Program-made: the position numbers and the translations under genes
Source of the DNA: a plasmid
Length of the DNA: 64,000 nt
Direction: 5' to 3' (one strand)
NCBI RefSeq assembly: GCF_053078305.1
Contig: NZ_CP166875.1
The notes under the pieces: generated by a model
The model's database searches: none
The model's input: the letters and a program-made list of their open reading frames with translations, nothing else
What the model was told of the DNA's origin: nothing
Shown here: positions 45,745-55,333 of the stretch, in pieces
How the letters are laid out: each line of letters starts with the position of its first letter
How positions within the stretch are numbered: position 1 is the first letter of the stretch

Positions 45745-46356
45745 CTGCTGCTCTGATTCTGACTACTGCAGTGTTGTCCTGTCTGCCGGGCGCACCTTCG
45801 GCTCCCGGCTGCCTGGCGGCATTCGGTCGTCAGGCCCGACTCCGACAGGCAGCTGCTGGCGCACCCGCCAGTCTCCGCCGAACCCGCTGGCGCGGTTTCG
45901 GGCTGTCGCTACGGTCCGATGCGTGAAAACCCCTGGCTTGCAGCGACCGGAACGGTCGCGCCGCCCTTGTCGCGCCGTGGCCTGCGCTCCCGGCATCCCG
46001 GCAAAAAGACGCCGGGATGTAAGGAGCAACGCCGTTTCGCAAACCGCGCTTCACGTCGTTGCGGCGGGTCCCTGCTCATTGCCTGCCGGGTGCCACACAC
46101 CCGTATGAGTCCCTGTCGCCGGGGGCTGATACAGCCACAACCTGCCGCACTGACTGTCCAGGGTAAATGAACAGCCCACAAAATTTTTTACCCAGAACCC
46201 GGTAAAAAATTTTGCGTTCTGCCCAGGACAGGTGCGTCAGGCCGTGGCAGTGATGCCCCTTGCGGCGAAGGTTCTCAAACGGGTGAAGTTCATACCACAG
46301 GGAATACAGCAGCAGGTTCCCGCGAAACGTCAAAACCGCGGCTCCCGAAACTCAAC
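45745..46356. repeat. GC-rich ~610-bp leading-region repeat (Frpo/ssi-like), copy 1
   Basis: Near-identical to 49081-49690 and 54724-55333. Confidence 0.85.
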
Positions 46357-46593
46357 GGGTGATGTTCTTTAAAAATCAGGATTTATTTCAGGCTCCGGCA
46401 ATACGCATTTATGTGTTCTGTCAGCATCCTGCTGGCAGGTAATGAGAACGCAGGAACAGAAGGAGGAATACACCGGAAAACGTCAGATGCAGATATGAAA
46501 AAAGCAGGTCAGGGACCTGCTTAATCCACGCCGAAGAGACTGTGCAACCAGTCTTTAAGGCACTGTTACCAACCTGTCATAAGGTATCCATTT

Positions 46594-46824
46594 ATGACTG
46601 TAAGCATTGTTTCACCTTCCGCAGCGGCTGTAAAGCCCCGCCGTCATCCCCGTTTCAGACGCGAAGACATCCCCGCGCCGGAAATTGACCCCGTGCTGAA
46701 AGCCTTCGGGCGACACATAGCCCGGAGTTTTCACCGGGGGCGTGGTGTACACATCCCCGCCATGAAAAACACGGCTTTCGGGCAGGTGCTCCGCACACTC
46801 GAACTGAAACGCGCTTTTAACTGA
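46594..46824 (+). CDS. hypothetical protein (76 aa)
   Basis: ORF upstream of 453-aa gene. Confidence 0.4.
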   Translation: MTVSIVSPSAAAVKPRRHPRFRREDIPAPEIDPVLKAFGRHIARSFHRGRGVHIPAMKNTAFGQVLRTLELKRAFN

Positions 46825-46875
46825 TGAGGTGAGCCGCCCCGCGAGGGGCGGCAACAGACGGAAGGAGAACATTTT

Positions 46876-48237
46876 ATGACATTAGCAGCAATCACCATGA
46901 CCGCCCCGGAAGCCGCCAGCCCTGTGCAGATGTACCGCGCGACCTACTCACCGGATGACAACAAACTGCGCCTGTATGCCGCGTCACGTCTTGACCCGGA
47001 GACGTATAAAAAAGTACATGATGCCGGTTTCCGCTGGGCACCAAAACAGGCGCTGTTTGTCGCGCCAGCCTGGACACCGGGCCGGGAAGACGTGCTTCTC
47101 TCACTTGCCGGAGAGATTGAGGATGAAGACAGTACGCTCGCTGAACGTCAGGAAGCACGGGCGGAGCGGTTTACCGGATACAGCGGAAAGCGGGCCAGTG
47201 AATCCGCACAGGCACTTGATGAAGTGGAAAGACTGGCCGCGATGATCCCGCCCGGTCAGCCCATTCTTGTGGGGCATCACAGCGAACGCCGCGCCCGTCG
47301 TGATGCGCAGCGTATTGAAAACGGCATGAAACGCGCCGTGATGCTCTTTGAACGTGCGGAATACTGGGAAGAGCGGGCGCGGTCGGCACTGCTTCACGCG
47401 AAGTATAAAGAACGTCCGGACGTTCGCTGGCGTCGTATCAAAAAAATCGAAGCTGATTTGCGCAAGGCGGAAAAGACCATCGCACAGTCGCAGAAATATC
47501 TGACGATGTGGCGGGCTGAATCGCTGGATCTGAATATGGCAAAACTCATCAGCAGTCATGACCATATCAGCGCCTGTTTCCCGCTGGACAGGTATCCGCG
47601 CCCGGCAGAAAAAAGCCAGTATGAAGGAAGTCGATCGTTATGGTCGGCCCTGGATGATGACATCATCACCACGGAGCAGGCCCGCGAAATTGCGATCCGC
47701 TGTCATGAACGGCAGATTCAGCGTCAGCAACGCTGGGTTAACCACTATCAGAACCGCCTGATCTATGAGCGTGCCATGCTGGACGAAAGCGGCGGCGTGG
47801 TTACCCGGACACAGGATTTTGAGCCGGGCGGGCAGGTTTTCAGCCGGGGCGAGTGGCTGACCATCATCCGCGTGAACAAAAGCAACGGGGCGGTGAGTTC
47901 AGTCACAACGCCGAATTACAGTTTTCTCGGGTACAGCGGCACGATGAAAGTGACGCCCGATCGCATCACGGACTACAAAGCACCATCGGCAGAAGAGGCT
48001 GCCGTCGCCAGTCAGGCCGCGAAGCGTCCGCCGGTAGTCAACTATCCGGGGGAAGGTTTCCGGGAAATGACAAAGGCGCAGTGGGCCGCCCTGCCCCGGG
48101 ACTGTAAGGCCGTGCGCAGTGTGGCAGAGACAGAAGACCACGGGGCATACCGCTACCGCCGCACAATGGACAATAATTTCCGCCTGGTGAATGTGTATAT
48201 CACCGACATGAAAATCACGGAAATCCCACAGAAATAA
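46876..48237 (+). CDS. conserved leading-region protein of unknown function (453 aa)
   Basis: Long ORF, charged, no motif recognised. Confidence 0.55.
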   Translation: MTLAAITMTAPEAASPVQMYRATYSPDDNKLRLYAASRLDPETYKKVHDAGFRWAPKQALFVAPAWTPGREDVLLSLAGEIEDEDSTLAERQEARAERFTGYSGKRASESAQALDEVERLAAMIPPGQPILVGHHSERRARRDAQRIENGMKRAVMLFERAEYWEERARSALLHAKYKERPDVRWRRIKKIEADLRKAEKTIAQSQKYLTMWRAESLDLNMAKLISSHDHISACFPLDRYPRPAEKSQYEGSRSLWSALDDDIITTEQAREIAIRCHERQIQRQQRWVNHYQNRLIYERAMLDESGGVVTRTQDFEPGGQVFSRGEWLTIIRVNKSNGAVSSVTTPNYSFLGYSGTMKVTPDRITDYKAPSAEEAAVASQAAKRPPVVNYPGEGFREMTKAQWAALPRDCKAVRSVAETEDHGAYRYRRTMDNNFRLVNVYITDMKITEIPQK

Positions 48238-48283
48238 GGTATATCCCCCCGGGAAATCCCCGGGGGATGACGGAGATAATGAC

Positions 48284-53050: not shown

Positions 53051-53766
53051 GCGCACGTTCACAGGCACTGGTTCCTCTCAGCACAGAGCAACAGGCCGCA
53101 TGGCGGGCGGTGGCGGAGACAGAAAAACGCCGCCACCAGGGTAACACGCTGGCGGAATATCCGTATGCGGGGGCGTTTTTCCGCTGTCTGAACGGAAGCC
53201 GCAGGATTTCGCTGTCTGACCTGCGATTTTTCATGCCGTCCCTGACCGCAGAAGAACTGCGCGGCAACCGTTCTCAGTGGCTGTATGCCGTCGATGTGCT
53301 GATTGAAACACAGGGCGAGGTCTGCCTCCTTCCCCTTCCCGGTGATGCAGCAGAGCGGTTGTTCCCGTCGGTGCGGTTCCGTGTCAGGGAACGCAGTCGC
53401 CATAAATCCGTGCTGGTCATGCAGAAGTACAGCCGCCAGCAGGCACGGGAGGCAGAGCAGAAAGCCCGTGCGTACCAGACGCTGGTCGCTCAGGCTGAAA
53501 TCGAACTGGCGTTCCATTCACCGGAAACAGTCGGAAGCTGGTATGCACGCTGGAGTGACCGGGTGGCAGAGCATGACCTGGAAACCCTGTTCTGGCAGTG
53601 GGGTGAGCGTTTTCCGTCACTGGCCGGGATGGAACGCTGGCAGTGGCAGGATATGCCATTCTGGCAGGTCATCGCAGAGGCAGGTATGGCAGCAAGGGAG
53701 GCGGGTCACGCTGTCCGTGAGATGGAGCGGTGGATGGTGCCGAACAAACTCCGGGAGGCGGCGTGA
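53047..53766 (+). CDS. psiA: plasmid SOS inhibition protein A
   Basis: 239 aa, ATGA-coupled to psiB. Confidence 0.85.
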
Positions 53767-54284
53767 AGTGGCGTTACTCATTGCGCTGGAAACTGCCTTC
53801 TCCCTGTCCTGGCGAGCATGAACTGGTTTCAGAAGTGGTGGAGGCGGGGCAGCCTGCACCGGCATCCGTTATGTCACGCTGGGTTGCCGGAGCAGGGTAT
53901 GCGGTCTGTCTGGATTTTATTTCTGACCGCCCGGTGCGCCGCTGGAGCGAAGAACGTAAGGCTGCGGTACGGCGGCGGAATCTGGAGAAACGTATCAACA
54001 GGCATGCACCACTGTTTGCGGATGAACTGATTGCCCGTGAACTGGCTGAACGACCGGATTATTTTCAGGGAAAGTGAGTGTGGTCAGTACGCAGGTATAT
54101 GGGCTATGATGTGCCCGGCGCTTGAGGCTTTCTGCCTCATGACGTGAAGGTGGTTTGTTATCCTGTCGTGTGGCAGAAGGACAAAAGCCCCGTAGTTAAT
54201 TTTTCATTAACCCACGAGGCCTCTGCATGTCTAGTCCACGTCAGTATGGCCTCTTACCGTGCAAATTGCAAGGAGGAGTAAACC

Positions 54285-54446
54285 ATGAAACTACCGGGAA
54301 ACGCCCTTATCTGGTGCGTATTAATCGTGTGCTGCACGTTGTTGATATTCACACTCCTGACCCGGAATCGCCTGTGCGAAGTCCGGCTGAAGGACGGATA
54401 CAGGGAAGTTACGGCAACAATGGCTTACGAATCCGGCGGTAAGTAG
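54285..54446 (+). CDS. hok: Hok/FlmA-family type I toxin
   Basis: [53 protein letters not shown]; overlapping mok-like frame 54227-54442. Confidence 0.85.
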
Positions 54447-54723
54447 CAACCTGGAGGCGGGCGCAGGCCCGCCTTTTCAGGGCTGATGCTGGTCTGACTG
54501 CACTGAAGCGCCTTTATAAAGGGGCTGCTGGTTCGCCGGTGGCCCCTTTCTCCTTGCTGGCATTGTAGCAGCATGAACAACCAGACTGTCAGGAAGGCCA
54601 CTTCCCTCCGGGAACGGGAATGAACGTGCGCCTGCGGCGCTCGTTCTTTTCCCCCGCCTTCTCTGTTTATGGCCAGTTGTCAGAAATGACATTACCTTTC
54701 CCGTGATTATTCTCTTTTTCTTC

Positions 54724-55333
54724 CTGCTCTGATTCTGACTACTGCAGTGTTGTCCTGTCTGCCGGGCGCACCTTCGGCTCCCGGCTGCCTGGCGGCATCC
54801 GGTCGTCAGGCCCGACTCCGACAGGCAGCTGCTGGCGCACCTGCCAGTCTCCGCCGAACCCGCTGGCGCGGTTTCGGGCTGCCGCTACGGTCCGATGCGT
54901 GAAAACCCCGGGCTTGCAGCGACCGTTCCGGTCGCGCCGCCTCTGTCGCGCCGTGGCCTGCGCTCCCGGCATCCCGGCAAAAAGACGCCGGGATGTAAGG
55001 CGCAACGCCGTTTCGCAAACCGCGCTTCACGTCGTTGCGGCGGGTCCCTGCCCGTTGTTCTGTCCGGTGCCATTCACCTGTTTAAGCCCCTGTCGCCGGG
55101 GGCTGATACAGCCACAACCTGCCGCACTGACTGTCCAGGGTAAATGAACAGCCCACAAAATTTTTTACCCAAAACCCGGTAAAAAATTTTGCGTTCTGCC
55201 CAGGACAGGTGCGTCAGGCCGTGGCAGTGATGCCCCATGCGGCGAAGGTTCTCAAACAGGTGATGGTGAATACCGGAGGGAACAAAAGGCAGGTCCCCGC
55301 AAAACGTCAAAACCGCGGCTCCCGAAACTCAAC
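54724..55333. repeat. GC-rich leading-region repeat (Frpo/ssi-like), copy 3
   Basis: Near-identical to 49081-49690; a truncated derivative lies at ~55710-55790. Confidence 0.85.

Follow-up and report, generated by a model that had tools for sequence, protein, structure and literature searches.

Repeats in the leading region of an F-like plasmid as class-1 single-stranded DNA promoter units with a structured upstream half

The leading regions of enterobacterial plasmids contain single-stranded DNA (ssDNA) promoters, and the class-1 unit among them is named Frpo or ssiD in F, ssi1-3 in ColIb-P9 and 'ssp1' in recent work. Rolling-circle sso and G4/phiX174-type ssi sites are similar in that folded ssDNA lets a host polymerase or primase start synthesis; unlike the class-1 units, they prime DNA synthesis only and are not placed to express downstream genes. 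Here we describe a family of repeats in a 64,000-nucleotide plasmid stretch (contig NZ_CP166875.1 of NCBI RefSeq assembly GCF_053078305.1; this whole stretch is referred to as the window), and assign each repeat, at a probability of about 0.93, to the class-1 unit. In F, according to papers that cite Masai & Arai (1997), the single strand folds, RNA polymerase binds it, and the RNA doubles as message and primer. Deletion of either Frpo1 or Frpo2 from F abolishes the early output of downstream proteins, and conversion to double-stranded DNA (dsDNA) shuts this output off (Couturier 2023). An anti-CRISPR driven by Frpo2 protects only from the transferred strand (T strand) of the leading region (Samuel 2024), the start sites of class-1 elements in pESBL were confirmed by 5' rapid amplification of cDNA ends (5' RACE; Wen 2025), and ssp1/Frpo transcripts help prime conversion in vivo (Fraikin 2026 preprint). 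The same preprint reports that ssp2 stalls complementary-strand synthesis; there is no such report for class 1. The repeat element is therefore one that is already known, and the window adds one more example, in which three copies are F-type, one is I-type and one is decayed. The fresh point is a structured upstream half that lies outside the published promoter, a modest but testable lead.

A repeat search of the window found a 300-nt block at 45737, 49070 and 54713 (95-98% identical) and a 203-nt block at 46084, 49418 and 55061 (95% identical), the two blocks being in register at all three places. Alignment and nhmmer stretch the units to ~640 nt, reaching the ribosome-binding site (RBS) of the next gene. 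The original prediction, made from the sequence alone, had proposed three direct copies of a ~610-bp repeat that each sit just upstream of a leading-region gene. The copies are real, with a unit of ~640 bp that is 88-99% identical across copies, and they adjoin leading-region genes: ssb, which starts at 49730, follows copy 2, and a 100-aa open reading frame (ORF) starting at 55373 follows copy 3. Each unit consists of an upstream module, here called U, and a promoter half, P. Pairwise identity among the three direct copies is 95.1-97.5% in U, whereas in the promoter half it is 98.9% for copy 2 versus copy 3 and 88% for copy 1 versus either of the others, a degree of likeness far above what chance would give. 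The upstream half is the richer in GC, at 68-70%, compared with 57-58% for the hairpin half. In PLSDB the unit is present in at least 5000 plasmids, at about 2.9 places per record. The whole direct units listed below were delimited by repeat search, alignment and nhmmer.

45737-46377: copy 1, whole unit (~640 nt)
45737-46019, minus strand: upstream module U of copy 1 (core ~45799-45977; nhmmer match to U positions 2-283)
46020-46377, minus strand: class-1 hairpin P and leader of copy 1, before the 76-aa ORF, DUF3560 and S-adenosylmethionine (SAM)-methyltransferase genes
49070-49729: copy 2, whole unit (~640 nt)
49070-49352, minus strand: upstream module U of copy 2 (core 49132-49310; repeat search and nhmmer)
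49353-49729, minus strand: class-1 promoter and leader of copy 2 (hairpin 49367-49685), ending at the ssb start codon
54713-55372: copy 3, whole unit (~640 nt)
54713-54995, minus strand: upstream module U of copy 3 (core ~54775-54953; repeat search and nhmmer)
54996-55372, minus strand: class-1 promoter and leader of copy 3, ending at the start codon of the 100-aa ORF
55714-55811, minus strand: hairpin-deleted remnant, in which U positions 193-250 run straight into the final ~40 nt of the unit (P positions 319-359)
1404-1862, plus strand (the folding, or template, strand): inverted IncI-type class-1 unit, with an I-type hairpin at 1404-1656 and the shared U at 1656-1862 (core ~1680-1860)
57939-57956, minus strand: F-type oriT motif GGTGCTTTTGGTGGTGAG (exact match; relatives have the order SLT - oriT - traM)

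The assignment to class 1 rests on homology to the published elements, on the strand and position of the units, and on their fold. The motif GGTGCTTTTGGTGGTGAG, located immediately 3' of nic and which we take to be the sequence that follows the F nick in F-type oriT, has one exact match, on the minus strand (57956->57939). As this nic-adjacent motif is on the minus strand, the minus strand is the one that is transferred, 5'-first toward lower coordinates, and it is the template for the plus-strand leading genes. The units are positioned 2.6-12 kb from the motif, and the leading genes that flank them are all on the plus strand. Reference sequences for F ssiD, F Frpo2 and the ColIb-P9 ssi elements were taken from supplements 4 and 11 of Samuel et al. 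2024 and compared with the window by blastn. F ssiD (= Frpo) aligns on the minus strand with the gene-proximal half of the units, with 87% identity to copy 2 (351 nt), 87% to copy 3 and 80% to copy 1, over 335-351 nt. The F Frpo2 fragment is closer still, at 97.9% identity to copy 2, 96.5% to copy 3 and 91.8% to copy 1, while for the inverted copy the identities are 96% to ColIb-P9 Frpo3/ssi3 and 92% to ssi2, and the U of this copy was matched by nhmmer. Compared with F Frpo1 (= ssiD, ssp1a) and Frpo2 (ssp1b), the hairpin half is 87-98% identical and agrees in strand and in its long imperfect hairpin. Within the units, Rfam 15 gave no family at the gathering score, and at E<=10 returned just chance-level matches (E 0.8-7). 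Of the ~610-640-bp repeat, the published promoter takes in no more than the gene-proximal half. The original prediction had offered the whole ~610-bp repeat as a candidate Frpo or ssi element; this reading holds for the gene-proximal half, where published homology and a stable T-strand hairpin support it, but the upstream ~280 nt extend beyond the published promoter.

When the minus strand of the gene-proximal half is folded as DNA, each copy forms one imperfect hairpin of ~320 nt. The folding energies are -98.4 kcal/mol for copy 1 (z -9.5; its complement reaches -88.3), -105.8 to -107.2 kcal/mol for copy 2 (z about -12) and -109.4 kcal/mol for copy 3 (z -11.8), so that the z-scores of the direct copies run from about -10 to -12. 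The I-type hairpin of the inverted copy folds at -92.5 kcal/mol (z -7.6), compared with -79.2 for its complement. All four hairpins thus lie between -92 and -109 kcal/mol, with z from -7.6 to -11.8, and in all four the T strand folds better than the complementary strand by 10-13 kcal/mol, because G.T pairs form on it. This hairpin fold was projected onto 15 homologues (from the window, F, ColIb-P9, IncI-gamma, Klebsiella, Citrobacter, Serratia and an insect metagenome); 82.5% of the cells in this alignment remain paired, versus 41-49% when the partners are slid, and both sides have changed in 33 pairs, versus 13-24 with slid partners. RNAalifold, applied to the mixed alignment of F-type and I-type sequences, recovered the hairpin in part only, and the projection of a single-sequence fold did better. 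At the apex of the hairpin a 16-bp A/T stem is conserved, as are a bulge of 8 nt on the 3' arm and the invariant sequence CCCTGGAC. Homology, strand, position, hairpin stability, strand asymmetry and covariation are all direct observations on the window and its relatives.

The upstream module has a structure of its own. U comprises the ~280 nt upstream of the promoter half, beyond the published Frpo/ssi sequences: F ssiD stops 16 nt into the U alignment, and the ColIb-P9 ssi sequences stop at the first U helix, which leaves all but a few initial nucleotides of the U core beyond them. This core of ~180 nt, which is the structured part of U, is GC-rich and lies just 3' of the hairpin on the transferred strand. 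Folded as T-strand DNA, U reaches -76.2 kcal/mol in copy 1 (z -3.9), -78.8 in copy 2 (z -4.2/-4.3) and -79.3 in copy 3 (z -4.3), a moderate advantage over shuffled sequences (z about -4). RNAalifold, run on an alignment of 18 copies in T-strand orientation, predicts 49 pairs arranged in seven helices, two of them long-range. In lineages that are ~70% identical, 99.0% of the cells in these pairs are paired, compared with 19-43% when the partners are slid; both sides have changed in 14 pairs (65 cells), compared with 0-2 pairs (0-5 cells) when slid, counts that come from few clades, and so from few independent events, and from a structure derived from the same alignment. G.T pairs outnumber A.C pairs by 25 to 2, and the fold therefore belongs to the transferred-strand sense. 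Several unpaired stretches, among them the long GGAGCCGAAGG and GGGTTCGGCGGAG, are invariant, and in one Klebsiella copy a hairpin has been swapped for an unrelated hairpin at the same place. U is kept in diverged units that are 69-76% identical, in Lelliottia, four Klebsiella plasmids and Citrobacter, and it accompanies F-type, I-type and Klebsiella-type hairpins as well as the Salmonella 'Frpo*' hairpin, which is a different hairpin. A search of the accessible literature found no description of U.

Could U be without a function of its own, a flanking sequence that was co-duplicated with the promoter and homogenised with it by homologous recombination? Copies within one plasmid are 95-98% identical in U, as would be expected under gene conversion; the distal part of U can be exchanged, with F and some Klebsiella plasmids carrying a 'type B' segment where this plasmid has type A; and the published functional fragments are without U. 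Against this stand the pairing that persists at 99.0% of cells across lineages ~70% identical, the double changes in 14 pairs against at most two with slid partners, the bias of G.T over A.C, the invariant unpaired stretches and the replacement of one hairpin by another, and we consider this account unlikely. The model of the fold instead suggests that U is a functional ssDNA module, which is likely but unproven. More specifically, the U core may be a separate, structurally constrained ssDNA element that acts either as an insulator or roadblock or as a docking platform for proteins, a proposal to which we give somewhat less than an even chance. As a guess, the most plausible role of U is that of a barrier, an insulator or roadblock against RNA or DNA polymerases arriving from the upstream operon, which might thereby keep the hairpin folded and single-stranded for longer; this idea arises because U sits where such polymerases would arrive, and it draws on the analogy with stalling at ssp2. 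The other possibility is that a host or plasmid protein docks on U. If U is functional, it would be a second cis-acting ssDNA component of the zygotic-induction programme and a concrete, deletable target for studying how plasmids keep single-strand promoters active.

Several further observations concern U. A Klebsiella IncFII plasmid (locus L004, 6659-9000) has a group II intron (Rfam RF02012 and RF00029; ltrA) inserted in the T-strand sense. The insertion site corresponds to 49123|49124 of the window, between GGTGCGC and CCGGCAG, 9 nt 3' of the last pair of the U fold and 12 nt 3' of its last hairpin. In an IncI-gamma plasmid (locus L003, about 236-2640) an ltrA gene in the same orientation adjoins the U module, and many plasmid matches to U begin at the point of the intron site; it looks as if the intron targets the folded U single strand. 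A scan of 298 Gb of genome contigs with the 16-nt palindrome CGACCGGAACGGTCGC returned about 120 matches, mostly chance ones in GC-rich genomes, and the only real matches were in a Citrobacter contig (L025) and in two contigs of a Streptomyces assembly that resemble E. coli plasmids. The latter, contigs 139 and 178 of Streptomyces morookaense DSM 40503 (L035, L036), are short and carry the U module at 87-99% identity, and in the longer one, L035, it has a ~2.3-kb interruption, as in the intron-bearing Klebsiella plasmid. The presence of an enterobacterial U in this assembly is probably contamination. A small hairpin of the form GCGACCG-loop-CGGTCGC lies at 45949-45965, 49283-49299, 54926-54942 and 1728-1744; in the plus sense its loop reads TTCC in copies 2 and 3 and GGAA in copy 1, the inverted copy and the remnant, a difference that is a loop inversion inside a perfect palindrome. 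Directly upstream of copy 2, at 49027-49067, lies a perfect (CTGCTA)x6.8 microsatellite; the array is longer in a Klebsiella relative, F has a CTT-rich tract at the same site, and all these tracts are purine-rich on the T strand.

With the window's units read as class-1 promoters, a sequence of events during transfer can be proposed. The minus strand would be nicked at about 57.96 kb and threaded 5'-first into the recipient, with each leading gene entering just ahead of its promoter. On the incoming strand the ~320-nt imperfect palindrome would form a long hairpin, the duplex stretch of which would contain the promoter elements. Host sigma-70 RNA polymerase would bind the hairpin and transcribe the stem, using the 5' arm as template, and then the single-stranded gene region. 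Copy 1 would serve the 76-aa ORF, the DUF3560 gene and the methylase genes; copy 2 would serve ssb, yfjA, the parB-like gene, psiB and psiA; and copy 3 would serve the 100-aa ORF, the ygeA-like gene and the DUF932 gene. The RNA would act as mRNA and, as the literature indicates, also as a primer for complementary-strand synthesis. Conversion to duplex would then remove the hairpin and turn the promoter off, giving a brief burst of ssDNA-binding protein (SSB), SOS-inhibitor and anti-restriction proteins. The papers on F and ColIb-P9/pESBL are the source for polymerase binding, early transcription, shut-off and priming, and we infer that the particular copies in the window fire. On this reading the units set when an incoming resistance plasmid first expresses its genes, namely those for SSB, SOS inhibitors, anti-restriction proteins and methylases; that class-1 units matter to how plasmids evade host defences is established knowledge.

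Some points weigh against the promoter reading. A strict scan for -35 and -10 boxes in the unit gave no match, and no duplex site was found by a strict sigma-70 consensus scan of both strands of 49000-49760, although the absence of a duplex consensus is what is expected of a promoter that is silent as dsDNA. On the 3' arm, a weight-matrix scan offers weak alternatives, either TTGTGG-17-GACAGT or TGGACA with a poor -10 element; the invariant TGGACA agrees with TTGACA at 5 of 6 positions and is followed by an internal loop, and among all homologues the scan found no single convincing -35/-10 arrangement in common. The lower stem is more diverged in copy 1 (88%), and ~215 nt separate this copy from the next ORF. 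Deletion of Frpo2 from F left the laboratory conjugation frequency undiminished (Couturier 2023); given this result, the role in fitness can be subtle.

The literature that establishes these elements as promoters also ties them to DNA synthesis, and the units might accordingly be mainly priming sites (ssi) for complementary-strand synthesis, with gene expression incidental. The F element was first isolated as ssiD, a signal for single-strand initiation, and Masai & Arai, as far as their work is related in citing papers, showed primer RNA synthesis on it; early conversion downstream of ssp1/Frpo is transcription-dependent (Fraikin 2026 preprint); and a homologue of F ssiE (95%, minus strand) lies at 57172-57334 of the window, next to oriT. 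However, F loses the early downstream proteins upon deletion of Frpo1 or Frpo2 (Couturier 2023), the Frpo2 fragment that is 97.9% identical to copy 2 gave protective anti-CRISPR expression only on the leading-region T strand, and every unit in the window stops at an RBS and start codon. Priming as the chief role is improbable, and the priming and promoter roles are not exclusive.

The units are long imperfect palindromes, GC-rich and multi-copy, and they border gene cassettes that vary among plasmids, all of which would suit a non-autonomous mobile element (of the miniature inverted-repeat transposable, repetitive extragenic palindromic or bacterial interspersed mosaic type) or its scars, with no role in transfer; but at all loci examined (in the window, F, IncI-gamma, Klebsiella and Lelliottia) each unit faces oriT and immediately precedes leading genes, the hairpin's mismatches and bulges are retained and covary, folding is more favourable on the transferred strand, and promoter function has been shown experimentally for a 98%-identical sequence, and such an origin is very hard to sustain. 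An attC-like recombination site was likewise considered and rejected, as there is no integrase, the orientation is fixed and the changes are compensatory. That the repeats encode small proteins is scarcely credible: each unit holds ORFs of 74-88 aa on both strands, for example 49252-49500 (+) and 49096-49362 (-), and annotation pipelines sometimes call one to three hypothetical proteins there, but near-identical plasmids are annotated inconsistently (none, one, two or three, on varying strands), homologues differ by 1-, 2- and 4-nt indels and in one case by a hairpin swapped for an unrelated one, the substitutions are compensatory across helices and not codon-patterned, and long ORFs are expected by chance in GC-rich DNA.

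Two further members of the family stand apart from the three direct copies. The truncated derivative noticed in the original prediction is real, and it has lost the whole hairpin, cleanly, between the short repeats GCG(G)CTCCCG that flank the hairpin base. It lies upstream of a 95-aa ygeA-like ORF (55831), directly before which F has an intact Frpo1. The 'inverted hybrid copy' of the same prediction is indeed inverted, but 'hybrid' does not apply, since an I-type hairpin joined to the shared U is the normal composition of an IncI-type unit. A deletion product of copies 1 and 2 was ruled out as the origin of this copy, since its promoter hairpin is of the I type. It belongs to a second, partial IncI-type leading region at 1-3338, which is inverted and contains parB-like, DUF905, ssb, the class-1 unit, DUF1380 and klcA. 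This region is 90-98% identical to 44179-51055, and it aligns with the IncI-type leading region of pSTEC1024_2, a relative with both MOBF and MOBP relaxases, in which the alignment partner continues to IncI nikA/oriT. The inverted region therefore implies a cointegrate plasmid, whose two leading regions, both present in the window, point in opposite directions. The inverted copy would fire only in transfer from an I-type oriT outside the window, which would move the plus strand. Recombination between repeats had been invoked for a deletion here; it is not needed, because the IncI-type region of pSTEC1024_2 is also without the DUF3560/methylase cassette at this place. Earlier work has already considered the danger that copies recombine with one another, in F (Couturier 2023) and in IncI plasmids.

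The arrangement of the direct units closely follows that of F. The F sequence (NC_002483) has a two-part unit of ~607 nt twice, before ssb and before the 95-aa ygeA-type gene, positions that correspond to those in the window. Unlike F, this plasmid has a third full copy, and this copy precedes a DUF3560/SAM-methyltransferase cassette not found in F. Between copy 3 and the ygeA-like gene it also has a 100-aa gene that F does not have, together with the hairpin-deleted remnant; the distal upstream segment is type A here and type B in F. Relative to F, then, the copy-1/DUF3560/methylase cassette and the 100-aa gene have been gained. The comparison with the ssi1-3 elements of ColIb-P9/R64/pESBL (IncI1) separates the two halves of the unit. 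The inverted copy is of this type, with 1404-1656 being 96% identical to ssi3, and IncI units share the U core with this plasmid at 93-97% identity, whereas the resemblance of the hairpins of the three direct copies to the I type is confined to the apical 80-96 nt and reaches no more than 77-80% identity there. In the lower stem the direct copies differ from the I type in sequence, but their pairing is equal.

The window as a whole is that of an F-like conjugative plasmid, in which Rfam identifies the traJ 5' untranslated region/FinP at 58753-58862, two sok RNAs and CopA. The names of the genes downstream of the units were taken from the annotation of a close relative. The 76-aa ORF (46594) is ~215 nt downstream of copy 1 and precedes the DUF3560 gene and a class I SAM-methyltransferase gene. 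Downstream of copy 2 are ssb, DUF905 (yfjA), a ParB-like gene, psiB, psiA and hok/sok, and downstream of copy 3 are the 100-aa ORF, the 95-aa ygeA-like ORF and a DUF932 gene, followed by the SLT gene, oriT and traM. The 100-aa ORF (55373-55675), located between copy 3 and the remnant, is annotated only as hypothetical (WP_001272236 in a relative); this leading-region gene comes immediately after an ssDNA promoter.

Class-2 (ssp2/'Frpo3', before ardB/klcA) and class-3 (ssp3, before an M.EcoGIX-like methylase) ssDNA promoters resemble the units described here in placing a T-strand hairpin before a leading operon, but they have no sequence similarity to the repeats studied. Candidates for both were seen in the window. 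The segments 44110-44444 (-) and 3149-3343 (+) are 79% and 88% identical, respectively, to the insect-metagenome candidate Frpo'4 (Samuel et al.); the T strand of 44120-44480 folds at -92.5 kcal/mol (z -4.8), with TTGCAA ... TACGAT on its 3' arm, and both segments are likely class-2 promoters of the ssp2/'Frpo3' type upstream of a klcA/ardB-like antirestriction gene. At about 41560-41900 (-), just upstream of a leading-region DNA methylase gene, the T strand is predicted to fold at -94.8 kcal/mol (z -6.0), which makes this segment a possible class-3 promoter candidate. Finally, an Rfam match to AS-pc02 ('antisense to pHK01_099') at 3428-3570 (-), with 61.6 bits, adjoins the inverted leading region.

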